This document shows, piece by piece, positions 1 to 62,040 of a DNA stretch of 64,000 nt (within the stretch, counting starts at the first letter, position 1; the number at the start of each line of letters is the position of its first letter). The stretch lies in sequence record MT682711.1, one strand, 5' to 3'. The stretch is from Escherichia phage vB_EcoM_FB. The notes beneath the pieces are model-generated. The model made no database searches. It saw only the letters and a list, made by a program, of their open reading frames with translations, and was not told the origin of the DNA. The translations under genes were made by a program, and so were the position numbers.

Positions 1-264
1 TGCAATCTTAACTCGGCGGTTGATGATATCACGGAAGTCAATACGATTTTCTTGGATTTTCAGCCAGTTACCAGATTTGTCTTTGGTATGGGTAGAGTAT
101 TCACCGTTCCACCAGAAGTCGGTAGCATAAGCCATGGCTTCGTATTTCTTAACTAAGGCATTCACTGCATTACCATTAGGATTGTTACCGAATTTTTCTA
201 CCAGAGCTTTGATGTCTTTATCAAGAGCGGAAAGAGTAGTACGAATAAAGTTTAACTTGTTCAT
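1..264 (-). CDS. hypothetical protein, N-terminal 88 codons only (ORF runs off left edge)
   Basis: ATG at 264..262 with GAGGAG SD; frame open to position 1; no family recognised. Confidence 0.45.
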   Translation of the reverse strand, partial: MNKLNFIRTTLSALDKDIKALVEKFGNNPNGNAVNALVKKYEAMAYATDFWWNGEYSTHTKDKSGNWLKIQENRIDFRDIINRRVKIA

Positions 265-290
265 TTTTAATCTCCTCATGTTTTGATAGG

Positions 291-323
291 TCTATAGTAA
301 CATGTGAGAATCTTGCTGTAAAC
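291..323 (-). promoter_or_regulatory. T4-type early promoter (GTTTACA, ~17 nt spacer, TACTAT) for the edge ORF
   Basis: RC reads GTTTACA...TACTATAGA then GAGGAG-ATG; same module recurs across the window. Confidence 0.5.
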
Positions 324-4077: not shown

Positions 4078-4287
4078 TTACTTTGAACTAGAACGCGCTT
4101 TGCGCCGAACCTTGTTGTTCAATCTTTTACGATAAACAACCTTTTCTTTCGCTTTAAATTTGGCCTTGGCTTGTTCTACATCAACCCATGCTTTGGCCAT
4201 GTCCTTAGCGGTCCCGCCCATTTTTTTAGCAATTTCTATAAAATTCAACCCAGATTCGTGTAAAAAATGTACTTTAACCTTATCCAT
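4078..4287 (-). CDS. hypothetical small basic protein (24.x position)
   Basis: start re-set to ATG at 4287 (MDKVKVHF...), downstream of the promoter -10; lysine/arginine-rich C-terminus. Confidence 0.5.
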   Translation of the reverse strand: MDKVKVHFLHESGLNFIEIAKKMGGTAKDMAKAWVDVEQAKAKFKAKEKVVYRKRLNNKVRRKARSSSK

Positions 4288-4316
4288 AACAATTCTCTCG
4301 TTGAGTTGGTAAACCC

Positions 4317-4347
4317 ATCTTAACATAGAATTTTTAACTTGTAAACA
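4317..4347 (-). promoter_or_regulatory. early-type promoter (GTTTAC ... TAAGAT)
   Basis: -35 GTTTAC and -10 TAAGAT on the minus strand upstream of ATG 4287. Confidence 0.4.
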
Positions 4348-4370
4348 GGAATTTTGTACTTTAATGCAAA

Positions 4371-4388
4371 ATGGGCCTTGCGGCCCAT
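4371..4388. terminator. hairpin downstream of hoc
   Basis: ATGGGCC-ttgc-GGCCCAT perfect 7 bp stem. Confidence 0.5.
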
Positions 4389-8620: not shown

Positions 8621-8630
8621 GTGGTACTTT

Positions 8631-9068
8631 TTATTTTTCACCTGCTTCAAATTTCCTGAGCTCCAACATATTCTTTAATGAGAAACCTCTAGATTTGACC
8701 GCATCCAATGCCGAACTACAAAAGTCTTGTAATAAGGCCCAATACTGGATTGACGTATCGATTTTAATTACGCTTGAATCCGCCGCCATTACAGTCTTTA
8801 ATTCCGACTTCTCGTACTGGTCCATACAAACCTCATCACCAGGCTCTCCACGTCCCGTGTAGAAATCTAATCTCTTCTTAAGAGAGGTCTTTTTCTGGAT
8901 TTCTAATCGCATTATCTCTTTCTTACAATTCGTATATAGTCTTAGCCATTTGCTGTGCAGCAAAACGTTGTTCTGTACTTCATACTGTAAACGAGTCCCA
9001 TCAATCTTTAAATCTTCATCTAATGCATCTTGGAACGATTCTAATTTATATTCAATCTCTTTACTCAT
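8631..9068 (-). CDS. uvsY: UvsY recombination mediator
   Basis: start re-set to ATG 9068; TRLQYEVQNNVLLHSKWLRLY...DFCSSALDAVKSRGFSLKNMLELRKFEAG as in T4 UvsY. Confidence 0.9.
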   Translation of the reverse strand: MSKEIEYKLESFQDALDEDLKIDGTRLQYEVQNNVLLHSKWLRLYTNCKKEIMRLEIQKKTSLKKRLDFYTGRGEPGDEVCMDQYEKSELKTVMAADSSVIKIDTSIQYWALLQDFCSSALDAVKSRGFSLKNMLELRKFEAGEK

Positions 9069-16393: not shown

Positions 16394-16684
16394 TTATTTA
16401 CGGAACGAAATGAAACCTGCTGCAGTCATTAGTGGTTGCTTTTTAACAAACACCGTAACTGAAATAGGAGCTTCAGATTCGAGCTGTCCTGTCACTACAC
16501 CATTAAAGATATTTTCAGTTTGTTCCGGCTGAGAAAAGTTCTCAACAGGACGGATATCAAATTGCTTATCTTCACCGAAAACTCGACGCAATTCATTACC
16601 AACTGCACTGTCAAACTCTTCGGAAGCAGGGATAACGTTTTCAACTACCAGTTCTTGACCATTAAAACGGAATGCAGATTTCAT
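16394..16684 (-). CDS. hypothetical protein (alt.-1 position)
   Basis: 96 aa; GAGGAGAACATT SD; own early promoter. Confidence 0.55.
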   Translation of the reverse strand: MKSAFRFNGQELVVENVIPASEEFDSAVGNELRRVFGEDKQFDIRPVENFSQPEQTENIFNGVVTGQLESEAPISVTVFVKKQPLMTAAGFISFRK

Positions 16685-16712
16685 AATGTTCTCCTCATGT
16701 TTGTGTAAGGTA

Positions 16713-16742
16713 ATAGTAACACCATCCTTGGCGTTTGTAAAC
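16713..16742 (-). promoter_or_regulatory. early promoter (GTTTACA-N17-TACTAT)
   Basis: 19-nt core ATAGTAACACCATCCTTGG shared with the copy at 61996..62024. Confidence 0.5.
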
Positions 16743-18793: not shown

Positions 18794-18796
18794 TAT

Positions 18797-20881
18797 TTAC
18801 CCTTGGATGAATTTTTCTGGGATGTCATAGAGGTCTATGCATGAAGCCAAAAGAGGCAGTACATCAAACCGTGTAGATTTAACAAATGAATCAAAAGATA
18901 CGGGGCTTTCGGAAGTATCGAAGTCATCTTGATATACGACCAACTCGCCGGTTTCCATTAGTACGTCACCATCATATACCACAGATTCTTGAAGCTCATC
19001 TGTTGTCATAACTTCAGCTTGGATGAGTTTTGTATTACTAGATGTTGTTCCATCATTATTAGAAGCATCTGTTATTTTATTAACTTTGACCATTAATCCA
19101 CGCGGTAGAATAACTTCGGCTTCAGTTGCTATTCCGAGATTTCCTGGATATACGACATTAACTTTATGAGCCCCATCAATGGCCCATCCTATTTGAACCT
19201 TAACGTAATCGGGATTTTCCTTATACGCTCTTATTTCATTAGGATTAATAGTTATTCCTTCTTCATTTTTATCAACTGTCAATTCGTTGCGAACTTCCGG
19301 TTCTAAAAGACCAATACCAGCGTGCGTAACACCAAAACGTCCGAAAATTATAGGAGTTAAAGAAGTAGATACAAAATTTCTAAAATAAAACACTTTATTT
19401 TTAACTAGTGCTTCGTATATAGGAGCAGTCATACTCTGGGCACGATAAACTGTAATGCCTTCCGGTATACGGTCACCATTTTCAAAAGCTGAATCTAAAT
19501 TATTTACAGCGGATTCGATATCTTTTTCGCTCATAACCTCATAGTTCTGAGGATTATAACGTCCTAAAAGAAGATTATTTATGTCTGTATATCCTGAACC
19601 ACAATATTCTCTGATGCCGCGCTTTTGTGATGGGGTATATTTAGAGCCCTCACGAGCAATAGTAATATCGACCATAATACCACCACCTACACCAGCAAAA
19701 CTATACACACGTTTTTTAATGAACTTAGTCTTGGCTGCTTTCCACTTGGACTCGGTTAATTCATTCCAGACGTCGTCAGGTTGGCCTTTACGAGTTCTGT
19801 TATGGATAGCCAGCCACTCGCCTTTATATTCTTCGAAAATGGTATTAATGGTAGAGGCATATTTTTCCAGGGCTTTAACAGATGTCAAAGGTTCATTTTT
19901 GATAGCTGTAAGAATTTTCTCTTTAATTTTCTCTTGGATTTCACCAATACCGTGAAGTGGGAACAATTTATAGTCGTAATGCAATTCTTCAGCAGTGCCT
20001 TCAGCTACTATATTAGCAACCTTATTTTTAGCCGCAGGAGAATTGTTATTAGTGACCATTTCCTGGGCCTCAGGGATTAATGGAACTGTTGCCGGTTTAT
20101 TAAAATCTACTGCAGTAGCTTCATATTTCTTAAACAGCTCACTTTCATTACGATAAGATTCTAACGATTGACTTGCCGCAATAGCACGTCGAGAAATCTT
20201 AGTCTTGGTTATAACCATTTTATCAGTGCGACGTTCTTCAACCTTAGCAATACTACCGGCGATAGCAGTTTCTTTAGTAACCTGCACGCCTTCTTTTTTA
20301 GAAATATAAACTTCACCGACATCAGAATCTACCTTAGTATACAATTCAGCATTAATTCCAGGCATACCTTTGATATCTTCTATATCAGCTTGTTTACGAA
20401 CTACCAGGATGTAAGTATGTTTACCGGTAAATTGGTACATAGCCGGAACTACTTTAAAACGTCCACCTGTTTTCTGTGCTACCAAACGTTGGATAATCCG
20501 TTGAACGATAGGGCCTTGACCTTTCATTTTCTTAGTAGGGAAACGGAACATCACGGCATCCATACGAAGCTTTTTAACTTGGTCATAAACCACATCAAAA
20601 ATAGTATTAATCGCATCTACGGGAGTAGGGCCTAGGCCACCTTTAAGTTCGGCAGGCGAACCTTTAGCTGAAAGGCTCATAAGGATAACGTGGGCATATT
20701 TATCACCCATCTTAACCTGTTTAATAGCATCACCTTCAGAAGCGTAGGATACCATACGCGCCACTAATTGGGATTCTGCGTCACCAATCTTCCAAATCTG
20801 GGGTACTTTAAGTTTTGGGTTCAAGTTTACTGTAGGCAGTGTGCCTTCGGACTCAAACACTTCATTTAATTGTTCGGTCAT
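18797..20881 (-). CDS. Alt-family ADP-ribosyltransferase paralog (copy 2)
   Basis: 694 aa; same motifs (YRAQ, FRNFVSTSL, EAEV); full-length similarity to copy 1, divergent middle third. Confidence 0.8.
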   Translation of the reverse strand: MTEQLNEVFESEGTLPTVNLNPKLKVPQIWKIGDAESQLVARMVSYASEGDAIKQVKMGDKYAHVILMSLSAKGSPAELKGGLGPTPVDAINTIFDVVYDQVKKLRMDAVMFRFPTKKMKGQGPIVQRIIQRLVAQKTGGRFKVVPAMYQFTGKHTYILVVRKQADIEDIKGMPGINAELYTKVDSDVGEVYISKKEGVQVTKETAIAGSIAKVEERRTDKMVITKTKISRRAIAASQSLESYRNESELFKKYEATAVDFNKPATVPLIPEAQEMVTNNNSPAAKNKVANIVAEGTAEELHYDYKLFPLHGIGEIQEKIKEKILTAIKNEPLTSVKALEKYASTINTIFEEYKGEWLAIHNRTRKGQPDDVWNELTESKWKAAKTKFIKKRVYSFAGVGGGIMVDITIAREGSKYTPSQKRGIREYCGSGYTDINNLLLGRYNPQNYEVMSEKDIESAVNNLDSAFENGDRIPEGITVYRAQSMTAPIYEALVKNKVFYFRNFVSTSLTPIIFGRFGVTHAGIGLLEPEVRNELTVDKNEEGITINPNEIRAYKENPDYVKVQIGWAIDGAHKVNVVYPGNLGIATEAEVILPRGLMVKVNKITDASNNDGTTSSNTKLIQAEVMTTDELQESVVYDGDVLMETGELVVYQDDFDTSESPVSFDSFVKSTRFDVLPLLASCIDLYDIPEKFIQG

Positions 20882-24756: not shown

Positions 24757-25122
24757 TTAGATGTCGAATTCGTTCAGAACTACATCAAAGATTGCTTCCA
24801 GGTGTTCAGGTTTAGCTCGGTTGCTCAGGATGTGACGAATCCAAGTTTTAACCAGAAGCTTACGATTAACACCGTTCCAGCAAGGATGGGTACCTAAATC
24901 ACGTTGACGGAAATCATCATCTAAAGCGATTTTAAAAGTAGAACCTTCCATTGTGATTGAAACCGTAATACCATTTTCAAAGCGCATATAAACGTAGTTA
25001 GGAGTCATGCACTGTTCGATTTCGCACACCGCGCCGTTGTTGTGTTTCCACAGGCAAATAACTTCAGAAGAACCAGCGATACCGTTAGAAACATATTTAC
25101 GTTCGAAGTTGATGTAGTTCAT
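24757..25122 (-). CDS. hypothetical protein (121 aa)
   Basis: CTGGAGAATAAA SD; leader duplicated from the next gene upstream. Confidence 0.5.
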   Translation of the reverse strand: MNYINFERKYVSNGIAGSSEVICLWKHNNGAVCEIEQCMTPNYVYMRFENGITVSITMEGSTFKIALDDDFRQRDLGTHPCWNGVNRKLLVKTWIRHILSNRAKPEHLEAIFDVVLNEFDI

Positions 25123-25149
25123 TTTATTCTCCAGTTTGTTTTCGTATTA

Positions 25150-25186
25150 TTTGGTACAGGTCTATAATAACACAACCTGTACCAAA
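25150..25186. other. strong intercistronic hairpin (11 bp perfect stem, 15 nt loop)
   Basis: TTTGGTACAGG / CCTGTACCAAA; loop carries a degenerate -10-like TATTATAGA. Confidence 0.6.
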
Positions 25187-25195
25187 GTAAAACAT

Positions 25196-25528
25196 TTATT
25201 TCACAACATTCCAATTTTTCATATCAAGTTTACCAACTTTTTTCATCTGAGCAATCAGACGTTCAGCACGTGTACGGGCATTAACATAATAGAATTCACC
25301 ATTTTTGTTTTCTTCAATACGACCAGTAATTACAGTTTTCAGTTCATAAATCCAACCTGTAAAGAAGTTGTGAAGCTCGATGGTGAATGTAAAATCAGTA
25401 CCCATACCTTCAGTTGTTTCAACTTCGATGATATCACCTTCAACTGCAGTCAGGACCCACATGGTTTCTTGATATTCACCGTTGAAACATTTAGCTTTAA
25501 CAGATGCATTCAGATTTACAGTTTTCAT
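25196..25528 (-). CDS. hypothetical protein (110 aa)
   Basis: ATG with GGAGAATAAA SD and its own early promoter. Confidence 0.5.
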   Translation of the reverse strand: MKTVNLNASVKAKCFNGEYQETMWVLTAVEGDIIEVETTEGMGTDFTFTIELHNFFTGWIYELKTVITGRIEENKNGEFYYVNARTRAERLIAQMKKVGKLDMKNWNVVK

Positions 25529-25569
25529 TTTATTCTCCAGTTTGTTTTAGTATTATTTGGTACATGTCT

Positions 25570-25598
25570 ATAGTATCATGCCTACCGGAGATGTACAC
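25570..25598 (-). promoter_or_regulatory. early promoter variant (TGTACA ... TACTAT)
   Basis: RC reads GTGTACAtctccggtaggcatgaTACTATAGA. Confidence 0.45.
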
Positions 25599-25626
25599 CC
25601 TTTTTTAAAGATTTAGAAACAAAAAT

Positions 25627-25644
25627 GGGACTCCGAAGAGTCCC
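25627..25644. terminator. UUCG/CGAA-loop hairpin
   Basis: GGGACTC-cgaa-GAGTCCC just downstream of the small ORF stop. Confidence 0.55.
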
Positions 25645-25649
25645 ATAAC

Positions 25650-27386: not shown

Positions 27387-27931
27387 TATTCACCACAATA
27401 GTTTTGAATTGATTCCCAGTTCAGAGAACGGAGGCCTGTACGGTTATACTGGATAACTTCAATCCCTGATTCACGGAGGATATCGTCCCAACCTTCAGGA
27501 TTTCGGTCATAGAGCTCAGCATAAACCAATGTTTTAATTCCGGACTGCGCAATAGACTTAGCACAATCAGCGCACGGAGATAACGTCACGTACATCGTAG
27601 CGCCATCAATAGAACTTCCGGTACGAGCTGCAAACAAAATAGCATTCAGTTCGGCATGGATTTCATTTTTAGATGACCATGCAGCGTGAGCCATTCGGTG
27701 TTCTTTAAGAAGAACGGATTTATGCGACATTCGCGTCGGGTCATACACAACACGGGTCCAGTCCTGTTCTACAGCATGGTCACAACAGTTAACACCACCG
27801 GAAGGCGAACCGTTATAACCTGTAGAGATAATGCGACCATTCTTTTCGATAACCGCACCCACTTTCCACGAACAACATTTTGATTCTTGAGAAATCAGAT
27901 ATGCAATCTGAAGGTATGTGCTTGCTTTCAT
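27386..27931 (-). CDS. cd: dCMP deaminase
   Basis: 181 aa; HAELNAI and PCADC zinc-binding motifs; N-terminus as in T4 Cd. Confidence 0.95.
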   Translation of the reverse strand: MKASTYLQIAYLISQESKCCSWKVGAVIEKNGRIISTGYNGSPSGGVNCCDHAVEQDWTRVVYDPTRMSHKSVLLKEHRMAHAAWSSKNEIHAELNAILFAARTGSSIDGATMYVTLSPCADCAKSIAQSGIKTLVYAELYDRNPEGWDDILRESGIEVIQYNRTGLRSLNWESIQNYCGE

Positions 27932-28269
27932 TACATCACCACTAGATAAGCTGTATTATTGGTTTCGACACGATATAAATCGGTACGAAGTTTAGTGATA
28001 GATTTCACACGTGAGGTTAATATACCATAACCGTCTGGGAAGCGTTTTTGTTTATCGAAAAATACCGCTGCCGGAATTCGATCACCAATTTCAACCGGAA
28101 GAACAGTAGCCAGCACAGCATCATATGTTGAAGTATGGATGCTTTGGAAATCTTCACTCAGTTTAAAAAGGTCTTTGATGTACTGAGTAGCCTTTTCAGA
28201 GAGACCTCGATGGTCTCCGTCTTCGTCAGATTGTAAGGTGGCATTAACTGCCGGTTTTAAATTAAGCAT
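27931..28269 (-). CDS. hypothetical protein (cd.x)
   Basis: start re-set to ATG 28269. Confidence 0.45.
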   Translation of the reverse strand: MLNLKPAVNATLQSDEDGDHRGLSEKATQYIKDLFKLSEDFQSIHTSTYDAVLATVLPVEIGDRIPAAVFFDKQKRFPDGYGILTSRVKSITKLRTDLYRVETNNTAYLVVM

Positions 28270-28498
28270 CAATATACACCCGCTGCGCTTCGACCAGACC
28301 ATCAGAACCAAGTTTCAATTGGGTAACCTGGCCGCCATTTTTAAGATTAACTATAACCAATACCGCACGTGGTGTTTCCTGGATTACTCGCAGAGTTGCA
28401 TCAGGAAAATGTACAGAAACCTTATTAATCAGGGCCTGAGCAAATTCTTTAACTTTAACTTGGAACTGCTCTACAGTAATAGGTTGTTCGCTCAGCAT
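28262..28498 (-). CDS. hypothetical protein (78 aa)
   Basis: ORF with TAATG junction. Confidence 0.45.
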   Translation of the reverse strand: MLSEQPITVEQFQVKVKEFAQALINKVSVHFPDATLRVIQETPRAVLVIVNLKNGGQVTQLKLGSDGLVEAQRVYIDA

Positions 28499-29052
28499 TA
28501 GATGGTCTCCAACTTAAGTTGTTTGGTAGTGGTAGCTTGGGTAACGTCGCCTTTAACAATATAACACACTTGTTGGAACGAATTAGTCAAAAGCTCTTCA
28601 GCCTGACGATCGGCTTGTTCCTTTGTGTTATGGCGAGAATGAACTTCAATCTTACCATTTTTAACAATAAGCACTTTCCAATCGGCTGGAGTTTTAATAG
28701 GTTTGATTTCAGGGTTCTGGAAAACTAACTGCACTTCTTTAGGGTCTACCACTTCGATAAAGTATTCGAATTCATGGCTAAAAAAGCCCGCTGAATTAAA
28801 AAGAACACTATTTGCATCGTCAGGATTACCTGTCATTTTGCTCGGGTCGACAAACATCATCTCGTCATATACACGAATTCGGCTTACACGTTCACGCCCA
28901 TTATGGTAATCAATTTCAACTTCAAACGGATTCATACCTACATACTTAGCAAAAGCCGTATTGAGGCCATAAGCACCGTTATTAGTGAATTTGTTTTTAG
29001 TGTATTCACCAACGAACTTGTAAAACTTACGCTCTTCAAAGAACTTACTCAT
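28498..29052 (-). CDS. hypothetical protein (184 aa)
   Basis: ORF with its own early promoter near 29085..29115. Confidence 0.5.
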   Translation of the reverse strand: MSKFFEERKFYKFVGEYTKNKFTNNGAYGLNTAFAKYVGMNPFEVEIDYHNGRERVSRIRVYDEMMFVDPSKMTGNPDDANSVLFNSAGFFSHEFEYFIEVVDPKEVQLVFQNPEIKPIKTPADWKVLIVKNGKIEVHSRHNTKEQADRQAEELLTNSFQQVCYIVKGDVTQATTTKQLKLETI

Positions 29053-29119
29053 TTCGATTTCCTCATTTGTTTCGGTAAGGTCATCATATCACCGTCCTTG
29101 GTGAAAGTAAACACCTTTT

Positions 29120-29811: not shown

Positions 29812-31015
<1,204 letters not shown>

Positions 31016-31049
31016 AATAATTTCCTCAATTTTTATAATCCGTAGGAGC

Positions 31050-31079
31050 ATTATACTCTGCTCCCAAGAGTTTGTAAAC
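31050..31079 (-). promoter_or_regulatory. early promoter (GTTTACA-N17-TATAAT)
   Basis: perfect -10 TATAAT. Confidence 0.55.
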
Positions 31080-31823: not shown

Positions 31824-32311
31824 TTGGTAATAATCTCGATGATGTCATCACGTGACAGGGAATTAATAAGAACTGTTTTAGGATTTTCACACTGAATTTT
31901 GTACGTTTCGAACATAAAACACAATTCTTCAGCGGTATGGTAAGGACTTGAAATGCCAAGGCGATTAAACTTGTCGCTTAATGGGTCACAAATCAAATAG
32001 AAAGTGATGCCTGAGATTTTAACATTAGGTTGGCTAATATTAATGAACACCTCGGCATCGTACTTGGAAAGGTTGTTTCGGAGAAACTCGACCATAGAGT
32101 TAACAGCTTGAGGCATTGCTTCACGCTTTTCTTCAGCGTAACGGGTAGAGTATTCTTTTTGCTTGATTTTCTTTTTAGCATTTTTAGCTAAAGTAACACG
32201 AAGATCGGTCAGGTAACCTACTGCACGAGAACCTTTAAAAACTTGGATGCCGTCAGTAGAGTCACCAAAAGCCTTAACAACCATTTCGTTAGTAATCATT
32301 TGCATATTCAT
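31811..32311 (-). CDS. alc: probable Alc (host transcription shutoff factor), by position
   Basis: 166 aa between spanins and rnlA, matching the T4 order; sequence itself not recognised. Confidence 0.45.
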   Translation of the reverse strand: MNMQMITNEMVVKAFGDSTDGIQVFKGSRAVGYLTDLRVTLAKNAKKKIKQKEYSTRYAEEKREAMPQAVNSMVEFLRNNLSKYDAEVFINISQPNVKISGITFYLICDPLSDKFNRLGISSPYHTAEELCFMFETYKIQCENPKTVLINSLSRDDIIEIITKCLN

Positions 32312-32341
32312 TTTGTTTTCTCCTCATTAGTTGGTAAGTCT

Positions 32342-32370
32342 ATACTAACACGTCATGAGGAGATGTAAAC
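32342..32370 (-). promoter_or_regulatory. early promoter (GTTTACA ... TAGTAT)
   Basis: early promoter consensus upstream of the alc start. Confidence 0.5.
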
Positions 32371-37509: not shown

Positions 37510-37929
37510 TTATAGGTCTTCTAATGAGAACGTGTCTTTGAAAAGTTTGTTAACAACCAGGGCTATCACATCCCCATGACAGTCCTTAGGTTTACAGGTA
37601 CACGCTATACGCATACCTCTAAGGGTTTCAAGATGTTCTCTTTTAATTTCGCCCGATTTTATTTTAGCAATAAAGTATTCTTTAAAGTTCTTGATGTTTT
37701 CCTCGCGGGTTCCATCTTTAAATGGATTACCCCACATAGTTCCACGTTGGATATTGACATCAAAGTCTTCTTTATACTTGTTAACAACTCTGCAAACTCT
37801 CATTATAGCACCAAATTCAGCCCAACCATAATAACCAAAAACAGAGTACAGATTATTTGAATTTTCATACAGCCATTTTAGCCTTAATAGTAGGGTGGGA
37901 CTCGTAACCAATGAGTTTAAAATCTTCAT
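37510..37929 (-). CDS. hypothetical protein with CxCxPxxCHGD motif (nrdA.1 position)
   Basis: WGNPF...ACTCKPKDCHGDV; called start overlaps last 65 nt of td, true start uncertain. Confidence 0.45.
   Translation of the reverse strand: MKILNSLVTSPTLLLRLKWLYENSNNLYSVFGYYGWAEFGAIMRVCRVVNKYKEDFDVNIQRGTMWGNPFKDGTREENIKNFKEYFIAKIKSGEIKREHLETLRGMRIACTCKPKDCHGDVIALVVNKLFKDTFSLEDL

Positions 37930-38724: not shown

Positions 38725-38725
<1 letters not shown>
37865..38725 (-). CDS. td: thymidylate synthase
   Basis: start re-set to ATG 38725 (MKQYQF..., 286 aa); ALPPCH active-site region; continuous ORF. Confidence 0.95.
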
Positions 38726-39756
<1,031 letters not shown>

Positions 39757-39781
39757 TTTATTCTCCTTAGTTGATAAGGCT

Positions 39782-39810
39782 ATAGTATCACTACCATAGC
39801 CTGGTGTAAA
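39782..39810 (-). promoter_or_regulatory. early promoter with -10 inside an inverted repeat
   Basis: GGCTATAGTAtcacTACCATAGCC inverted repeat spans the -10. Confidence 0.5.
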
Positions 39811-39811
39811 C

Positions 39812-40039
39812 TTATTTTTGAATTAAGCCCATATAAAATTTAGCGTCTTCCGGGTGCATACCGTCACAATACTCGTCAGCCATAAAGCGGGTAAGGTCTT
39901 CAAGAGGACCTTGGACTTCAATTTGCATACTACAGAATTGGGTATCTTTAATATGGGTCATAACTAAAGAAGGATAACGATTACGGATAACTTCGTAAGT
40001 GTATTCAAAATCAACGATATCAATATTAACCTTAGCCAT
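39812..40039 (-). CDS. hypothetical protein (75 aa)
   Basis: start re-set to ATG 40039 with GAGGAAAAT SD. Confidence 0.45.
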
Positions 40040-40071
40040 TTTATTTTCCTCACTCATTAGTTGATAGGTCT

Positions 40072-40099
40072 ATAGTATCATGTTTAAAGGCATTGTAAA
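40072..40099 (-). promoter_or_regulatory. early promoter (GTTTACA ... TACTAT)
   Basis: near-identical to copies at 291, 40766, 58202. Confidence 0.5.
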
Positions 40100-40102
40100 C
40101 AC

Positions 40103-40363
40103 TTATTTTTGAATTTTATCAAGCCATTTACCAAGCTTAATCATTTCTTTGGTAGCTTTTTCCATACTTCTAAATTTAACCAGTAAAGGTTGGGCATCAA
40201 CACCCATAACTAAGGTGGTTACAAGACTATGTTCACCTACAAGCCATAATGAATAAGTTTGGATATCGAGCCCGTAATTTCGGTCTTTATGAACTCGTAC
40301 ACCCATCACTTCAAATTTCTCACTGGCTTTTTCTACTGCATCCAGGAAATCATCTTTAGTCAT
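40103..40363 (-). CDS. hypothetical protein (86 aa)
   Basis: start re-set to ATG 40363 (TAATATG junction). Confidence 0.45.
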   Translation of the reverse strand: MTKDDFLDAVEKASEKFEVMGVRVHKDRNYGLDIQTYSLWLVGEHSLVTTLVMGVDAQPLLVKFRSMEKATKEMIKLGKWLDKIQK

Positions 40364-40364
40364 A

Positions 40365-40736
40365 TTAAATTCCAAAGGTAGCTTTAATCAAGGCAATGAC
40401 TTCCGCTGCATTTTTGTGATTAACCTGCACATGAATGGTTTGGGTATCAACATCAGGAACATCGCCAACAACTTCCAGGAAGTGACAGAATTCCCATTCA
40501 GCGAGTTCAAAGTACTCATCAGGCCCACCCATACTATTCAGGATAGTGCCATCTTTCATTTCAACTTTTTCAACAAAATAATCACCTTCAATATAACTCA
40601 TATCCAAGACTTTGAAGGAACTACCATGTTGTTCCATCAACTTGACCATGCACGAATTATAATTGTCATCAGGACTACCAGCGATGAAACGTTTTTTAGC
40701 AGCAGGGTCTAATACGTAAATTTTACCAGTTTCCAT
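40365..40736 (-). CDS. hypothetical protein (123 aa)
   Basis: GAGGAAAT SD; own early promoter. Confidence 0.5.
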   Translation of the reverse strand: METGKIYVLDPAAKKRFIAGSPDDNYNSCMVKLMEQHGSSFKVLDMSYIEGDYFVEKVEMKDGTILNSMGGPDEYFELAEWEFCHFLEVVGDVPDVDTQTIHVQVNHKNAAEVIALIKATFGI

Positions 40737-40765
40737 TTTTATTTCCTCATGTAGTTGATAGGTCT

Positions 40766-40793
40766 ATAGTATCATGTTTAAAGGGGTTGTAAA
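40766..40793 (-). promoter_or_regulatory. early promoter (GTTTACA ... TACTAT)
   Basis: near-identical promoter module. Confidence 0.5.
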
Positions 40794-40810
40794 CCATTAA
40801 ATGCCAAAAT

Positions 40811-40830
40811 GGGAAGACCGAAGTCTTCCC
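40811..40830. terminator. hairpin downstream of gene 32
   Basis: GGGAAGAC-cgaa-GTCTTCCC. Confidence 0.6.
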
Positions 40831-40846
40831 ATTATAAATCAATAAC

Positions 40847-41856: not shown

Positions 41857-42492
41857 TCACTTCGAATAAAGCATTTTTAACTTAATGAATTCAGGGTCAT
41901 CATTAGGAACCCAACCCTCATTAAATTGTTTAATCATACTCTTTGATGTAGTTTCACTAACATTTATACCAGAGTTAATGAGACGCCTCCATCCACAAGC
42001 TCTTCCACTAGAATTAATTATACAATAATTAGTATAAGCAATATCACTAAGCATCCAATCTAAAGGGTTTGCTCTAGAAGTTTTCCAAGGACGGTAATCG
42101 GGTTGATTCATATAGTTAGCAGCTTTCATATGGGCTCTAACTTCAGGACGTTTGGCTGGGTGAGTGCATCCAAAGACTCCAAATCCGCCACCGGCATAAA
42201 CCAAATTAAAATAATCATCATTATCTCTAGCTTGAACTTCCAATTGTTCTGAACGTTCAATATTAATAACAATATCAAATGGCGTTATAGCCAAAATTTC
42301 AACAATAGGTTTTTCTTCTTCGATGGCCTCTTTAAATCTTGATTGCTCGCAAGAGGTCCAATACTCTTTACCTTTACAGTCAATAATCACGCCATTTTCA
42401 AAAGTACAATTAGTTTTAGAACCTATGTACGAAAACGGCTTAATATTATTAGCCTGACGATTAAGCCAAGTCATTTTATAAACTATATTCAA
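41857..42492 (-). CDS. putative GIY-YIG homing endonuclease (SegG-like, between 32 and 59)
   Basis: N-terminal NIVYK...FSYIGSKT; only start overlapping the gp59 stop is TTG (TTGA). Confidence 0.5.
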   Translation of the reverse strand: MNIVYKMTWLNRQANNIKPFSYIGSKTNCTFENGVIIDCKGKEYWTSCEQSRFKEAIEEEKPIVEILAITPFDIVINIERSEQLEVQARDNDDYFNLVYAGGGFGVFGCTHPAKRPEVRAHMKAANYMNQPDYRPWKTSRANPLDWMLSDIAYTNYCIINSSGRACGWRRLINSGINVSETTSKSMIKQFNEGWVPNDDPEFIKLKMLYSK

Positions 42493-43701: not shown

Positions 43702-44649
43702 TTAATAAAAATCAGCTACTGTAGCGGTTAGTTTAGACAAACCGGATTTAACGAAATAAGGATAAACTTTAGATTTCGAAGGTTTGTTATACGTATTATA
43801 TCTTTCAGTAATTAAAGCAACAATATCATCTGGAATAAAGTCCATATCAATTAAGATTTGGTTTTCACAGAAACGTTCATATTGTTCTTCAGTAAGAAGT
43901 GTTTTAATTATATCATGGTCATAATAATTAAGAGCAATTGCTTCAAGTTCCTTGGCACGAGTGCTAGGAGTACGCTCGCCTTCAACCATGGTCAACCAAT
44001 AATCACCACGAACTTTAATACTCGCGACGTTATCTTTACGGTCACCTTTAACAACCTTGGTTACACAATCCAGTAATGAATCACCAGATTTTGTTTTGAC
44101 GAATTTTTTCTGCATTGGAGACCATTGTTTTACCCCAGGGAATTTATGGAGTTGAGTAAAGTCGCCATCAGAGGAACCAATCATAACCGGATGGCCTAAA
44201 GCCGTAAGGATTCGGGTTAAAACAGCAATATGGTCATCAGCCTCGACAGTATCGATGTTCATAACAATATAAGGCATGTTATGTTCAAGCTCATCAATAA
44301 TCAAATGCATTGCCGTAAATAAGCCTTCCCAATCAAATAATGATTCTTCACGAGCCTTGGCACGGTTTTTCTTATAATAAGGTGAATAGCGACGTCGCCA
44401 ATAACCTGATTTAGAGTTATCAACACAAATAACCAGTTGGTTGTAACCTTGTTTTTTAAAGTCTTTAATGTTTTTCTTAATTGAATTCAACACGAGGTGT
44501 CGAAGCATTGCTGTAGTTACTTTAGGAAATCCAGCATTTTCACCAAATTCTTGGAATGCTGCTGCCATAATGATTTGGCTAAAGTCTAACAACAAGAATC
44601 CATCTTTTTGACGTTCTTCTTCAGGAAGTAAAAAATCTAAATCGTTCAT
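43702..44649 (-). CDS. rnh: RNase H (5'-3' exonuclease, FEN family)
   Basis: start re-set to ATG 44649; GSSDGDFTQLHK and KSGYWRR as in T4 RNase H. Confidence 0.9.
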   Translation of the reverse strand: MNDLDFLLPEEERQKDGFLLLDFSQIIMAAAFQEFGENAGFPKVTTAMLRHLVLNSIKKNIKDFKKQGYNQLVICVDNSKSGYWRRRYSPYYKKNRAKAREESLFDWEGLFTAMHLIIDELEHNMPYIVMNIDTVEADDHIAVLTRILTALGHPVMIGSSDGDFTQLHKFPGVKQWSPMQKKFVKTKSGDSLLDCVTKVVKGDRKDNVASIKVRGDYWLTMVEGERTPSTRAKELEAIALNYYDHDIIKTLLTEEQYERFCENQILIDMDFIPDDIVALITERYNTYNKPSKSKVYPYFVKSGLSKLTATVADFY

Positions 44650-44680
44650 ATGAACCTCTGTCCAATTAGTGTAGAGGTTC

Positions 44681-44709
44681 ATTATATCATGGGTTTTAAG
44701 GAAGTAAAC
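44681..44709 (-). promoter_or_regulatory. early promoter (GTTTAC ... TATAAT) for rnh
   Basis: -10 TATAAT; leader contains a hairpin covering the SD. Confidence 0.5.
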
Positions 44710-55505: not shown

Positions 55506-55777
55506 AAATTGGAGGTATACATCATTAAATAACGGTGTATATCTTCATATCCTTCATTAAATTGCTCAATAAGAGTGTCACGTTCATCTTCAGTTAAAGA
55601 CTTAAATAATTTGTTATAAGACAAACCATTAAGTTCCTTTCCATGTTCATTACGAATACCCAACTCATTCAAAAAGGCAATAAACTCATCACGACGTTGC
55701 ATGATGTCTTCACAATCCGTTTTAATCAAAATGGAAACAATAGTAGCAATTTCGGAAACAATTTCAATTTTAGTCAT
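55502..55777 (-). CDS. asiA: AsiA anti-sigma70 factor
   Basis: start re-set to ATG 55777 (91 aa); IVSILIK...FIAFLNE...LIEQFNEGYEDIHRYLMMY as in T4 AsiA. Confidence 0.85.
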   Translation of the reverse strand: MTKIEIVSEIATIVSILIKTDCEDIMQRRDEFIAFLNELGIRNEHGKELNGLSYNKLFKSLTEDERDTLIEQFNEGYEDIHRYLMMYTSNF

Positions 55778-55819
55778 AATATTCTTCTTCAATTCAGTAC
55801 GTCATTATCTGATAGGGCT

Positions 55820-55848
55820 ATACTAACATATCCTTAGGGATTGTAAAC
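55820..55848 (-). promoter_or_regulatory. early promoter (GTTTACA ... TAGTAT) for asiA
   Basis: early promoter consensus. Confidence 0.5.
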
Positions 55849-56363: not shown

Positions 56364-56851
56364 TAGTAAAGGTCCTCAGAGTAAAGTTCTTTTTCACTGC
56401 CACCACGTTCAATACGAACTTGATTAGCATAAGTCGCAATAATCATTGCTTCTTCGCGAGTCCAATAGTTTGAATATTGGTCAATAAATCCTTGGTCATC
56501 ACCACAAACATGGTCTGATACAAGTTTATCACTTACCTGGTCGAGAACTTCAGCCATATCTTTAGAATAATGACGAGCGCCAGGAATAACCAGAGTCCCA
56601 CCGTCTTTTAACTTAAAGCGGTTGGCTGCGCACACAATCATGCGCTGATATTTTTCATTATTGTTCCAATGAGCGATTTGCCAACAGATTTCAGGAACCT
56701 CTTCTAAAACATCCTCTTCTGTATATTCGGTGTAATCACCATATGCCCGTAATTTAGCTGCTAGACTTTCAGGCGTCTCACGAGAAAGAGCTTTATCTAA
56801 TAAAGCCATACGGTCTTTAAAGGATAATGCTTTACCTTTTAATGGATTCAT
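56363..56851 (-). CDS. hypothetical protein (162 aa) with Cys/His-containing motifs
   Basis: IVCAANRF...[10 protein letters not shown]...[10 protein letters not shown]; no family recognised. Confidence 0.5.
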
Positions 56852-57195
56852 TTGAAAATCACCTTATGGCCGTTATCTTTAGCAAATTCTTGAATTTTGG
56901 TGGCAGTTTCAATTAACTCGCCTTTATAATAGGATGATAATTTAATATTAACTGTTTGGCCCTCGCCATACGAAGTTATATTTACCTTTTCAATAAAAAT
57001 AATCTCAAGAAATCGTAATAACTGCATACCAAATTCAAGATAAACGTTATCAATCTGGAGATCGAGTTGGTAAATTTTCTTAATACCGCTTACCAAAGCT
57101 ACACGCTCGTCCCAATCATTACGTTGTTCTTCAATCAATTTAAGGGAATGACCTTCACCGTCCCAGTTAAGTTCCATCGGAATCATTTGAACCAT
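56848..57195 (-). CDS. hypothetical protein (115 aa)
   Basis: ORF; ATGA junction. Confidence 0.45.
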
Positions 57196-57530: not shown

Positions 57531-58163
57531 TTAAATTGCGTTGGTTACGGTTTTGATAACTTCAGATGATACATTTTGGAAGTCGATATAAGTATTCTTA
57601 CCACCAGTCTTAATCTTAACATCAAGATTCAAGGAAGTAAACACTTGTTTTTCTTTATCAGTCATATTATAACCGAAGATACGCATCATTCCGTCACGAC
57701 GGACTTCAATTTGACGAATACCATTGGTACGTTTGGCGAATCGAACTTCAAGGTTGCTACGGTTTTCAGCAATTTCACGAATCTCGATACGATCTTCTAA
57801 TAAAGCTTTAACTTCATCGGCCATGGTTACCATTTCAGGAGTAACACCACGTGAGCTACGTGTTTTACGTTTTTCCAACATCTCTGGAGCATTTTCAGAA
57901 GCGAACAGGTCGGCGGCTTTTTGAACTAGGTCCATTGCTTCACCCGTAGCCACTAAACCATCACCGGATTTTTCGATGAATCCTTTCTTAATCAATACAC
58001 CGATGTTAGAGTTAACTACCGCAGCACTAAATTGCTCACTCAGGGCTTCACGGACTTCGCCTGAAGTGATGAAGTTATGCTTGATGATATGTACTAAGAT
58101 CGAAGCAGTTTTTTCATTCAGGACGTCTTCAGAAGCTTTGATGATATAAGTAATTTTAGACAT
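57531..58163 (-). CDS. motA: MotA middle-transcription activator
   Basis: start re-set to ATG 58163; MSKITYIIKASEDVLNEKTASIL...VVNSNIGVLIKKGFIEKSGDGL as in T4 MotA. Confidence 0.9.
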   Translation of the reverse strand: MSKITYIIKASEDVLNEKTASILVHIIKHNFITSGEVREALSEQFSAAVVNSNIGVLIKKGFIEKSGDGLVATGEAMDLVQKAADLFASENAPEMLEKRKTRSSRGVTPEMVTMADEVKALLEDRIEIREIAENRSNLEVRFAKRTNGIRQIEVRRDGMMRIFGYNMTDKEKQVFTSLNLDVKIKTGGKNTYIDFQNVSSEVIKTVTNAI

Positions 58164-58201
58164 TTTGTATCTCCATTTCACTCTATTGTTTTGATAGGTC
58201 T

Positions 58202-58230
58202 ATAGTATCATGTTTAAAGCAGAAGTAAAC
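58202..58230 (-). promoter_or_regulatory. early promoter (GTTTAC ... TACTAT) for motA
   Basis: early promoter consensus; MotA-box-like TGCTTTAAA overlaps. Confidence 0.5.
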
Positions 58231-58253
58231 ACTTTTTTCACTAAACCAAAAAA

Positions 58254-58269
58254 GGAACCCGAAGGTTCC
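58254..58269. terminator. hairpin between gene 52 side and motA
   Basis: GGAACC-cgaa-GGTTCC flanked by A6/T5. Confidence 0.65.
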
Positions 58270-58374
58270 TTACTTTTTAAAGTGAGCTGCTATTAAACCT
58301 ATAGCTAAGCCTGTCGCCAGGCCCAGAATAACAGCAAAGATACAGAGTAACAAGAACTCGACTCCAAGGCTCAT
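58270..58374 (-). CDS. small hydrophobic peptide (34 aa)
   Basis: MSLGVEFLLLCIFAVILGLATGLAIGLIAAHFKK; ATGA overlap with gene 52 stop. Confidence 0.35.
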   Translation of the reverse strand: MSLGVEFLLLCIFAVILGLATGLAIGLIAAHFKK

Positions 58375-60087: not shown

Positions 60088-60536
60088 TAGTATGCCTGCA
60101 GAATGAATTTAAAGTTATCAGCCAACATGCGGTTCATTTCTTCCAGTGTCTGGAGGTCGGAACTATGATTGCGGGTGAAAGCCATTGCAATTTGACCCTT
60201 ACCAAAACCTGTAGTCAGGGGTTTCATCTTAGAAGCCGGTACATAAAGAACTTCATACACAACACCATTCACTGCCATGGTGCGAGCTGATTGAGAACGT
60301 TTCTTACGAATATTAGCCACGATACCATCGAGACCTTGAGCAGAACGTTGGTTACCGACATAAAAACGAGCCGCTACGACACGAGAATCAGCGCCGCCTT
60401 TAACAAAGAAGTAGAAGCCTGGCTGAGCTGCCGTTTCTTTAGAAGGTTTGCCATTTTGGTATTCACCGTTCTTAACATAAGCAACAGTAGTAGCACCAGC
60501 AGACAGAACGTTACGGCGAGTCATATAAGTATTCAT
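60087..60536 (-). CDS. ndd: Ndd nucleoid disruption protein
   Basis: 149 aa; [22 protein letters not shown]...[21 protein letters not shown] as in T4 Ndd. Confidence 0.9.
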
Positions 60537-60585
60537 ATCAATTTCCTCAGTAGATTAATGTTTTGTTATCCAGTCAACGAGAACC

Positions 60586-60613
60586 ATTATAACATGATTC
60601 TCGAGGTTGTAAA
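60586..60613 (-). promoter_or_regulatory. early promoter (GTTTACA-N16-TATAAT) for ndd
   Basis: perfect -10 TATAAT. Confidence 0.5.
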
Positions 60614-60958
60614 CTATTTTTGTAGCTGTTCTAAAATAAATCCGCTCGTATAAAAAGAAGCATTATAAACCTTGTTCAGTGGGTTCAAAGCGCGTCCATA
60701 GGTATCACGTAATTCTTTGATAACGTTTTCATAACTCACGTAGTAAGCACTACGATAGTCAGGGTCCATGCTCATACGGAATTTGATGAATCGATAAAAA
60801 CCTGTATCCGGGTCTTGAACGAAAACGAAATCCGCACTTGCCATAGTTTTTGAATCTAGCCCAGTAACCAGTTCTTGATTGAAGGCCTTCAATGCCTCTT
60901 TAAGACTGAGTTGCTCAAAGAACATGACATTGGCATTACCAAAAAATACTTTAGACAT
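60614..60958 (-). CDS. hypothetical protein (114 aa)
   Basis: ORF with ATG start. Confidence 0.45.
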   Translation of the reverse strand: MSKVFFGNANVMFFEQLSLKEALKAFNQELVTGLDSKTMASADFVFVQDPDTGFYRFIKFRMSMDPDYRSAYYVSYENVIKELRDTYGRALNPLNKVYNASFYTSGFILEQLQK

Positions 60959-61190: not shown

Positions 61191-61301
61191 TCAGAAGTTA
61201 AAGAATACACGTACATGGTCAATCATAAAAACGATTGGGAAAATGCTCAATACCAAAAATAACACAAACATGTTCCAAATTGCTTTAAGTAAGTTTTTCA
61301 T
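61191..61301 (-). CDS. small hydrophobic peptide (36 aa)
   Basis: MKNLLKAIWNMFVLFLVLSIFPIVFMIDHVRVFFNF; GGAG SD; own early promoter. Confidence 0.3.
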   Translation of the reverse strand: MKNLLKAIWNMFVLFLVLSIFPIVFMIDHVRVFFNF

Positions 61302-61446
61302 AATCATCTCCATTAGTTGATAGGTCTATAATATCATGATTAATGGAGATGTACACTGTTTTATGCCAATTTTCACAACAATAAACTAAAACATACGCAA
61401 ATCACTGGGATACAGGTCAACCAAATAAGGCACCACGTTTTGCTAC

Positions 61447-61713
61447 TCAAAATACTACCTCTTTAATTTCAATCAATCCTCTGTACAATGCAGTGCGAAG
61501 GTCATAAAGAATATCTATGCCATCAACATTATCCAGTTTTCCATCGATAAGTTTTTGTAAATCTTCCTTTGATGCGATTAAGGGACGGAGAAATTTACAA
61601 TCAGAAAGAGATAACTCTGTAGTAACATCATCACCATCACCTGACGCGTCATACGTGGCGGCAACAACCGTACCCGTAACTTTGTGTTTAGCGTAATATA
61701 ATTTGATATTCAC
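61447..61713 (-). CDS. hypothetical protein (88 aa), tandem paralog A
   Basis: no internal Met; GTG start overlapping upstream stop (GTGA); YYAKHKVT. Confidence 0.45.
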   Translation of the reverse strand: MNIKLYYAKHKVTGTVVAATYDASGDGDDVTTELSLSDCKFLRPLIASKEDLQKLIDGKLDNVDGIDILYDLRTALYRGLIEIKEVVF

Positions 61714-61967
61714 AATTCCACCTCAATGATTTCAATCTGATTAGCATTGATAGCTTTTTTCAAAGCAGGGTAAATTTGAGTGCAGTAAGAATTATTTAGC
61801 TCACCGTTCACCAAACGTTGAATCTCGTCATGAGTGGTCAAATAAGGCTGGTCGGTTTCATATTTAGATAAATCCAGACCAGTGATGCAAAAGTCTTCTT
61901 CATCTGAAAAGGTTGAAAACGATACAAACTCACGGGTAATTTTATGTTTGGCGTAATAGAATTTCAT
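61710..61967 (-). CDS. hypothetical protein (85 aa), tandem paralog B
   Basis: MKFYYAKHKIT...IEIIEVEL; paralogous to the next gene downstream. Confidence 0.5.
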   Translation of the reverse strand: MKFYYAKHKITREFVSFSTFSDEEDFCITGLDLSKYETDQPYLTTHDEIQRLVNGELNNSYCTQIYPALKKAINANQIEIIEVEL

Positions 61968-61995
61968 TTTGTTTTCCTCTCAAGTTGATAGGAAG

Positions 61996-62024
61996 ATAGT
62001 AACACCATCCTTGGTGTATGTAAA
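61996..62024 (-). promoter_or_regulatory. early promoter (GTTTACA-N17-TACTAT)
   Basis: shares 19-nt core with the copy at 16713..16742. Confidence 0.5.
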
Positions 62025-62040
62025 CACTTATTTAAAAAAT

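Follow-up and report, generated by a model that had tools for sequence, protein, structure and literature searches.

The window analysed here (the whole stretch of 64,000 nucleotides, nt) came from Escherichia phage vB_EcoM_FB (record MT682711.1). The element under study was a short repeated module, hereafter the cassette, of which near-verbatim copies occur in the interval 40050-40800. By megablast the window belonged to Dhakavirus (JS98-like T4-type phages, Straboviridae) and was 95-97% identical to the Dhakavirus phages QL01, WG01, MX01 and Bp7, with 96.4% identity to QL01 and WG01 (over 25 kb) and 95.2% to Bp7 (neighbourhood of 40050-40800). The T4 gene order was kept from gene 24 to rIIB, according to the annotation of QL01, Bp7, MX01, JS98 and VR5, and MotA, AsiA and two Alt paralogs were encoded. 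The G+C content was 39.7%, and an Rfam search of the whole window matched no family. The interval 40050-40800 lay between gene 32 and frd, with all three open reading frames (ORFs) on the minus strand:

39812-40039, minus strand: frd.3 (PF05798)
40103-40363, minus strand: small ORF between frd.2 and frd.3
40365-40736, minus strand: frd.2 (PF03197)

Number, layout and statistics of the cassettes

A looser regular expression combined with inspection gave 17 copies of a module of 60-80 nt, all on the minus strand and within minus-strand early blocks. The module consisted of an A-rich upstream tract, a -35 element GTTTAC, a spacer of 17-18 nt that ends in TGn, a -10 element TAnnAT, a start region aGaCCTATCAAc, a Shine-Dalgarno sequence (SD) and ATG. 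Each cassette directly preceded an early-gene ORF and lay 25-49 nt upstream of the SD and ATG that open this minus-strand ORF. In the list that follows, the upper coordinate is the start of the -35 element and serves as the name of the cassette; fold z refers to folding from the -35 to the AUG.

262..323, minus strand: cassette preceding a small ORF that lies upstream of the gene 24 paralogs; -35 at 323-318, -10 at 299-294, ATG at 264-262
4285..4346, minus strand: cassette before a gp24.3-like ORF; -10 at 4322-4317, ATG at 4287-4285
16682..16742, minus strand: cassette before alt.-3; -10 at 16718-16713, spacer hairpin CGCCA-AGGA-UGGUG
25120..25192, minus strand: cassette before gene 30.7; inverted repeat GGTACAGGT / ACCTGTACC around the -10 (25169-25164), fold z -3.9
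25526..25598, minus strand: cassette before gene 30.8; -35 GTGTAC, -10 at 25575-25570
29050..29112, minus strand: cassette before ORF 28498-29052; -10 TATGAT at 29088-29083, spacer hairpin CACC-AAGGAC-GGUG
31013..31079, minus strand: cassette before ORF 30716-31015; arms GGGAGC / GCUCC around the -10 (31055-31050), fold z -2.9
32309..32370, minus strand: cassette before alc; spacer UCUCCUCAU pairs with the SD region AUGAGGAGA, fold z -4.1
39754..39811, minus strand: cassette before frd.1; 11-bp hairpin AGGCUAUGGUA-GUGA-UACUAUAGCCU with the -10 in its 3' strand, fold z -2.8
40037..40100, minus strand: cassette before frd.3; near-verbatim subfamily copy, unstructured as RNA
40734..40794, minus strand: cassette before frd.2; near-verbatim subfamily copy
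44647..44709, minus strand: cassette before rnh; own leader folds GAACCUCU...AGAGGUUC over the SD and start codon, fold z -2.9
55775..55848, minus strand: cassette before asiA; -10 TAGTAT at 55825-55820
58161..58230, minus strand: cassette before motA; recombinant junction left by loss of the orf253 module
60534..60614, minus strand: cassette before ndd; arms CGAGAAUC / GGUUCUCG around the -10 (60591-60586)
61299..61356, minus strand: cassette before an ndd.4-like ORF; -35 GTGTAC, spacer CAUCUCCAUUA pairs with the SD region UAAUGGAGAUG, fold z -3.4
61965..62025, minus strand: cassette before ORF 61710-61967; spacer hairpin CACCA-AGGA-UGGUG, second copy in QL01 flanks an inserted ORF

The 17-mer TACTATAGACCTATCAA had four exact copies (283-299, 40061-40077, 40755-40771, 58191-58207) and six further copies with 1-3 mismatches, and nine of the ten were on the minus strand; shuffled sequence was expected to give 0.35 matches, and 0 of 100 shuffles reached 10. 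The pattern GTTTACA-N17-TANNAT with at most one mismatch gave 8 matches (2.8 expected), every one on the minus strand. The 44-nt cores of cassettes 40100 and 40794 were 91% identical (all-pair mean 57%), and an identical 29-mer was common to 40100, 40794 and 58230. With a 66-nt cassette as BLAST query, 9-18 places were matched per Dhakavirus genome vs 1-3 per Tequatrovirus genome. A degenerate scan of IMG/VR (GTTTAC-N16-18-TANNAT-N5-TAYCAA) was set aside, as most of the matches listed were chance ones in unrelated contigs.

The sequence-only reading had proposed a near-verbatim recurring module, and each position it gave was a real copy; its list was incomplete and missed cassettes 4346, 25192, 25598, 29112 and 44709. 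The shared 19-mer that it reported (CCAAGGATGGTGTTACTAT, minus strand) was present at 16713-16742 and 61996-62025.

The promoter elements were well defined in the set. The -35 had at most one mismatch to GTTTAC in 17 of 17 cassettes, with a spacer of 17 nt in 10 and of 18 nt in 7. The TG at -15/-14 carried 1.5 bits per position and the T, A, A and T of the -10 hexamer 1.9 bits each; a separate consensus scan of 38.5-45 kb returned four copies, all four with TG before the -10. A UP-like tract (consensus AAAAAa, 0.6-1.2 bits per position) lay just 5' of the -35, at about -40 to -45. Early genes preceded by a cassette included alt.-3, 30.7, 30.8, alc, frd.1, frd.2, frd.3, rnh, asiA, motA and ndd.

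Probable early promoters with extended consensus and RegB-type leaders

An alignment of the 17 copies on their -35 and -10 contained about 50 bits in total: 10.5 in the -35, about 4.5 in the TGn region, 8.4 in the -10 and 14.8 in the 26 nt downstream of the -10 (consensus aGaCCTATcaA...), with a further contribution from the A-tract upstream of the -35. The need for picking about 45 sites from a 170-kb genome is about 13 bits, and the earlier impression of excess repetition was borne out in numbers. Known functions account for most of this excess, namely the extended T4 early-promoter consensus, a start region that T4 and RB69 have too, and leaders of RegB/S1 type. Much of the excess similarity was common to the equivalent promoters of T4 and RB69, which argues for conserved function and not only for recent copying.

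T4 early promoters (Pe) comprise UP, -35, TGn and -10 motifs as well as further consensus regions (Hinton review, PMC2988021). In common with these 'uber' UP/-35/TGn/-10 promoters, the cassettes had the -35 GTTTAC, a spacer of 17-18 nt that includes TGn, the -10 TAnnAT, A-rich sequence around -42, the conserved start region CTATCAAC and a location in front of the same early genes. This arrangement, with TACTAT-nnnnCTATCAAC, was found at the T4 promoters of denB, motA, frd.3, frd.1, cd.3, 30.8, 30.7 and rnh; TACTAT-ACAACTATCAAC or TACTAT-TACCCTATCAAC occurred before denB, motA, frd.3, frd.1 and ndd.4, and the RB69 start region was CTTTAAACATGATACTATAGACTTATCAA. Between the -10 and the start, Dhakavirus preferred AGACCT, whereas T4 had ACAACT or TACCCT. 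One spacer subfamily (CTTTAAACATGA) did not occur in the two regions of T4 that were scanned; RB69 had it.

The strong RegB/S1 cleavage-site consensus is GG*AGRAYARAA (PMC3014915). GGAGRAYARAA was matched at 10 or more of 11 positions by 8 sites in the window (both strands), 7 of them in cassette leaders (first G, minus strand: 275, 25132, 25538, 39766, 40049, 60571, 61977). These seven formed the SD regions of their leaders, about 10 nt before the ATG; the leader of cassette 323, GGAGATTAAAA, matched at 10/11 positions and that of the 30.7 cassette, GGAGAATAAAA, at 11/11. Strong RegB/S1 sites of T4 early mRNAs are alike in both respects, the likeness here being one of sequence match. The regB gene is annotated in JS98 and lies outside the window.

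The repeats are very probably strong sigma-70-dependent early promoters of a JS98-like T4-type phage, fused to a short leader and ribosome-binding site, and their similarity would reflect layered function plus occasional recombination. The sequence-only reading of the cassettes as early promoters of a T4-type genome was right. The sites bound by host RNA polymerase would be the upstream A-rich tract, GTTTAC at the -35, TGn and the -10, and transcription would start about 7 nt after the -10, within the conserved CCT-A-TCAAC. The leader would end in a GGAG-type SD followed by an A-rich stretch, which in 7 cassettes matches the strong RegB/S1 consensus, and mRNAs with such leaders could be inactivated shortly after infection. 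A single unit of 60-80 nt before an early gene would thus unite the promoter, the starts of transcription and of translation and a putative mRNA-inactivation site. Two causes may explain the likeness of the copies: several functional layers would constrain nearly every position, and the very active homologous recombination of the phage may occasionally exchange or homogenise copies. Dispersed direct repeats of this kind would sometimes allow an ORF to be gained or lost along with the promoter that serves it, as a minor route of gene-content change here.

Several points weigh against this interpretation. Start sites and early timing are taken from the T4 consensus. The seven leaders are candidate RegB/S1 sites, linked to RegB by sequence match and by the presence of regB in a relative. 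Cassettes were not enriched at indel junctions, so that their part in recombination could be incidental. For the identical spacers of the 40100, 40794 and 58230 subfamily, selection and gene conversion are not cleanly separable.

Gene-content breakpoints and recombination between copies

The cassettes had been likened to promoter/stem-loop (PeSL) cassettes proposed for T4-type phages, and it is with the published PeSL model that they are properly compared (PMC2839356, PMC4122927). Like the PeSL cassettes of RB49/phi1, T4/PST and KVP40/nt-1 (Arbiol 2010, Comeau 2014; PMC2839356, PMC4122927), they combine an early promoter with SD and ATG and occur in multiple copies within plastic early regions, a terminator hairpin precedes some copies, and some ORFs flanked by two copies have been gained or lost by recombination. 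Unlike them, the Dhakavirus window had a stem-loop at 4 of 17 cassettes and no enrichment of breakpoints. PeSL-like sequences in JS98 are mentioned in passing in that work (PMC2839356). Early-promoter repeats flanking ip genes in T-even phages (Repoila et al. 1994), going by their description in PMC2839356, similarly are repeated segments that bound exchangeable small genes, at another locus.

The upstream terminator-like hairpins had a UUCG loop at three cassettes (40794, 58230, 25598) and a GCAA loop at one (4346):

4367..4388, minus strand: hairpin AUGGGCC-GCAA-GGCCCAU, then UUUUG, immediately upstream of cassette 4346
25620..25646, minus strand: hairpin AUGGGACUC-UUCG-GAGUCCCAU, then UUUUUG, upstream of cassette 25598
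40804..40832, minus strand: hairpin AUGGGAAGAC-UUCG-GUCUUCCCAU, then UUUUGG, 3' of gene 32 and immediately upstream of cassette 40794
58246..58271, minus strand: hairpin AAGGAACC-UUCG-GGUUCCUU, then UUUUGG, 3' of gene 52 and upstream of cassette 58230

The hairpin at 40804..40832 failed the strict T-run rule of the terminator scan (4 T in 8). The other 13 cassettes had no terminator-like hairpin upstream and were directly preceded by the upstream stop codon. The earlier statement that several copies pair with a UUCG hairpin therefore applied to three copies and not to these 13. Upstream of alc in two T4-like contigs of IMG/VR (L188, L190), a GGGG...CCCC terminator-like hairpin was followed by TTCTTTCT, with the -35 GTGTAC in the loop, an extremely compact overlap of terminator and promoter.

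BLAST alignments of the window were chained against five relatives (QL01, Bp7, MX01, JS98, VR5) and every break was inspected; 15 of 70 minus-strand gene starts, hand-curated from the relatives' annotation, carried a cassette. Cassette junctions were touched by 5 of 20 indel or replacement events vs 5.9 expected when events are placed at random on gene junctions (P(>=5) = 0.75), a neutral outcome for the proposal that cassette boundaries coincide with changes in gene content. Breakpoints at cassette edges lay at 4355, 16745, 31016, 40717 and 61936. The first corresponded to a 2.2-kb insertion in VR5 (breakpoint at 4355-4368, just 5' of the -35 of cassette 4346). At 16745, homology of the alt.-3 cassette region with QL01, MX01, JS98 and VR5 broke; the stop codon of the upstream alt paralog overlapped the -35 of this cassette. 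Two candidates proved not to be cassette-mediated: the breakpoint at 31012-31016 was a gene-precise deletion with TATGA microhomology, and a 37-nt overlap at 61712/61936 reflected N-terminal paralogy of two adjacent ORFs.

Two modules had junctions within cassette repeats. In Bp7, JS98 and VR5 the order was terminator hairpin, cassette A, orf253, hairpin, cassette B and motA, and orf253 was cleanly absent from the window, MX01 and QL01. In the window and MX01, cassette A remained together with the leader of A and was joined to motA at the ATG; in QL01 the upstream half of cassette A was joined to the leader of cassette B. As the two crossover points inside the repeat differ, the orf253 module next to motA was lost twice, by independent crossovers inside the flanking cassette repeat. 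In QL01 the second module, an unrelated ORF, was flanked on both sides by a cassette of which the window has one copy, at 61965-62025 (site 61936-62025). The junctions of these two modules, as aligned among the relatives, demonstrate recombination between copies.

Mosaic and shared variants gave hints of exchange between distant copies. The alc cassette of VR5 carried an alt.-3-type leader, TTATGC was common to cassettes A and B of VR5, and ACATCTGC was common to the frd.3 and motA-A cassettes of Bp7.

The remaining gene-content events were of other kinds. ORFs 7952-8650 and 41857-42474 (both minus strand) were homing endonucleases (PHROG 314 and 7504); the first, between uvsY.-2 and uvsY, was absent from 5 of the 5 relatives compared, and the second, between genes 32 and 59 (SegG position), from QL01 and JS98. 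Bp7 carried an intron plus HNH insertion. Gains and losses of paralogs affected alt, cd.4, arn.3, frd.2a/b and the tandem pair 61447-61713 / 61710-61967. Cassettes thus do recombine, yet they are not preferred breakpoints in the region of the window, and most gains and losses occur elsewhere. The mobile-cassette reading stood for orf253 and the QL01 ORF, and it fell short in the breakpoint count and in the stem-loop found at 4 of 17 copies.

The tandem paralogous small ORFs 61447-61713 and 61710-61967 (minus strand) had the N-termini MKFYYAKHKIT and VNIKLYYAKHKVT. Bp7, MX01, JS98 and VR5 carried the second alone; in QL01 an unrelated ORF and an extra cassette replaced the first. Other small ORFs missing from some relatives were a 68-aa ORF between td and frd (38725-38931), cd.1 (27931-28269), nrdA.1 (37510-37929) and an arn.3 paralog (56848-57195), all on the minus strand, bounded by overlapping start and stop codons and with no cassette nearby. 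The paralogs of Alt (RNA polymerase ADP-ribosyltransferase) at 16742-20881 (minus strand) numbered two in the window vs three in QL01 and MX01. The 3' 1.3 kb of the promoter-distal paralog (16742-18793) had diverged from the relatives, and homology resumed exactly at its stop codon, at the -35 of the alt.-3 cassette. Two neighbouring paralogs of gene 24 (head vertex protein) at 366-1649 and 1649-2929 (plus strand) were likewise present in QL01, Bp7 and JS98, and the MX01 stretch compared had one gene 24 only.

The rival explanations differ in how much they ask of recombination. That mobile promoter/terminator modules, recombining with each other (including excision as mini-circles), are the main driver of gene shuffling here is unlikely. 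The orf253 module lying between two cassettes and lost by two crossovers in the repeat, the cassette-flanked ORF in QL01, the mosaics with their hints of concerted evolution, the cassette-edge breakpoints and the published precedent in RB49/phi1, T4/PST and KVP40/nt-1 (PMC2839356, PMC4122927) all favour it, but breakpoints fell on cassette junctions no more often than expected, the 31016 event involved no cassette-cassette exchange, the other indels were homing endonucleases, the Bp7 intron with its HNH gene and paralog duplications, and 13 copies lacked a stem-loop. The opposite extreme, in which each position is needed for promoter, leader or ribosome binding and recombination between copies plays no role, is less probable still. 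It agrees with the extended consensus that T4 and RB69 have at equivalent genes and with the lack of breakpoint enrichment. Against it, spacer subfamilies were identical at positions that are free to vary in other active copies, mosaics joined one spacer type to another leader type (VR5 alc; T4 Pe 27056 vs 166783), some genome-specific variants were common to distant paralogs, and the orf253 deletion junctions lay inside the repeat.

Two further readings concern the nature of the element. MotA/AsiA-dependent middle promoters, in place of early promoters, are highly improbable. MotA and AsiA are encoded in the window and the motA-type spacer holds TGCTTTA, which resembles a MotA box; that box, (a/t)(a/t)TGCTT(t/c)A, is centred at -30, lies 11-13 nt from the -10 and replaces the -35 (spacing rule quoted in PMC1524935). 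In the motA cassette TGCTTTA lay 7 nt from the -10, and the MotA-box reading was rejected on this spacing; moreover, all copies had a sigma-70 -35 (GTTTAC) at 17-18 nt and other copies had no TGCTT. A repeat due to chance or to low sequence complexity in intergenic AT-rich DNA, for which the G+C content of the window might speak, has next to no probability: it was already refuted by the motif counts (10 vs 0.35 expected), and strand, orientation and distance to the ATG were strictly kept. The elements add an instance from the JS98 group to two ideas that are already well described: the extended early promoters of T4 and cassettes of PeSL type.

Promoter spacers complementary to their own leaders

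In about one third of the cassettes the promoter spacer was complementary to the start region or SD of the same cassette (minus strand: 25150-25192, 31040-31079, 32315-32370, 39775-39811, 60575-60614, 61300-61356), as also at T4 and IMG/VR loci. In a start-region class the pairs were GGTACAGGT/ACCTGTACC (25192), GGGAGC/GCTCC (31079), CGAGAATC/GGTTCTCG (60614) and AGGCTATGGTA-GTGA-TACTATAGCCT (39811), with the -10 in the loop or 3' strand. In an anti-SD class they were TCTCCTCAT/ATGAGGAGA (32370, alc) and CATCTCCATTA/TAATGGAGATG (61356). Pairing spacers often began with ATCTCC right after the -35. Folding from the -35 to the AUG gave z <= -2.8 in 6 of 17 cassettes; five were unstructured, including the near-verbatim copies 323, 40100, 40794 and 58230.

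Mean duplex energy of the upstream part was -10.2 kcal/mol with its own leader vs -7.8 kcal/mol with leaders of other cassettes of the window (p = 0.00015). The preference for the own leader was also found in 5 of 5 relatives and independently in T4 (p = 0.00015), with null results in the reverse-complement and reversed-leader controls, and among 63 dereplicated cassettes (p < 5e-5). In RB69 alone it was not significant (n = 10, p = 0.08) and one control gave p = 0.013, such small sets being noisy. The sense strand of the 63 folded better than the antisense strand (Wilcoxon p = 0.005), as expected for RNA with G-U pairs.

Promoters of frd.1 from diverse phages were recovered from IMG/VR and had at least six arm pairs (AGGCTAT/ATAGCCT, AGGGTAAT/ATTACCCT, GGGTTAT/ATAACCC, GGTGTAGAGG/CTTCTACACC, GGTGTGGG/CCTACACC, ATGGGGCT/GGTCCCAT), each self-complementary and with every mismatch a G-U in the sense orientation. 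Because the register of the hairpin to the -10 varied by phage group (i+j = 45, 46 or 51), pairing with own vs other leaders was used in place of one column-wise consensus structure. Pairing averaged -13.7 kcal/mol with the own leader vs -7.9 kcal/mol with leaders of other cassettes (p < 2e-5).

Arms covaried at other promoters as well. Those of the alc promoter did so between T4 (AGTCCCTCGTG/CATGAGGACT) and Dhakavirus. Anti-SD spacers of the form ATCTCC+N4-5 matched N4-5+GGAGAT in their own leaders in four variants (TCAT/ATGA, ATTA/TAAT, TGTAG/CTACA and, in T4, AGTCC/GGACT). The T4 motB promoter had the same spacer as cassette 31079 with compensating arms GGGACC / GGTCCC, and the arms of the 30.7 cassette were kept in T4 and RB69.

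Two other structures were observed beside these. A spacer subfamily with a small internal hairpin and an AGGA or AAGGA loop (CGCCA-AGGA-TGGTG, CCACA-AGGA-TGTGG) occurred at 16700-16742, 29090-29112 and 61985-62025 (minus strand) and at T4 Pe 2434 and 167062; among orthologous alt.-3 promoters this stem differed in sequence between phages with the pairing retained. The rnh leader structure (44647-44680, minus strand), unlike the spacer hairpins, is present in the cassette's own transcript, and the fold was retained in QL01, MX01 and Bp7 with a G-U pair.

Since the spacer is not transcribed from the cassette's own promoter, a spacer-leader hairpin is possible only in read-through RNA, and the covariation of the arms across phages suggests hairpins of that kind. 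It is an appreciable but tentative possibility, somewhat short of an even chance, that many T-even early promoters are built into hairpins of read-through RNA only, which would make downstream translation and RegB sensitivity depend on the origin of the mRNA. In read-through RNA, hairpins of the anti-SD class would block ribosomes and RegB at the SD, and those of the start-region class would put a stable stem just upstream of the leader.

A known counterpart is the promoter-in-hairpin control of T4 late genes (e, soc, 49, 25, 26, I-TevI), in which the 5' arm lies upstream of the proximal promoter and the ribosome-binding site is sequestered in long transcripts only (Edgell review, PMC2988022). 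Cassettes 32370 and 61356 shared this geometry. All known cases are late genes with late promoters (PMC2988022), whereas the internal promoter in the cassettes is early and in many of them the 3' arm covers the start region, not the SD. The literature surveyed gave no description of spacer-leader hairpins at early promoters; older T4 work lay beyond its coverage, and they may already be described. The covarying promoter-embedded hairpins are the only part of this analysis that might be new, and their function is putative.

Those who annotate or engineer therapeutic Dhakavirus phages can make use of the list of 17 promoters with leaders of RegB type, and claims elsewhere that such cassettes drive shuffling deserve the same gene-junction null. 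If the read-through hairpins operate as proposed, genes like alc would be linked to the short period of early-promoter activity, or upstream cistrons would be protected after cleavage, as an early-gene counterpart of the late-promoter-in-hairpin control of e, soc, 49 and I-TevI. The covarying hairpins, if confirmed, could bear on the RegB resistance of some GGAG sites and, if also new, would represent a compact phage means to make translation depend on the promoter from which an mRNA was made.

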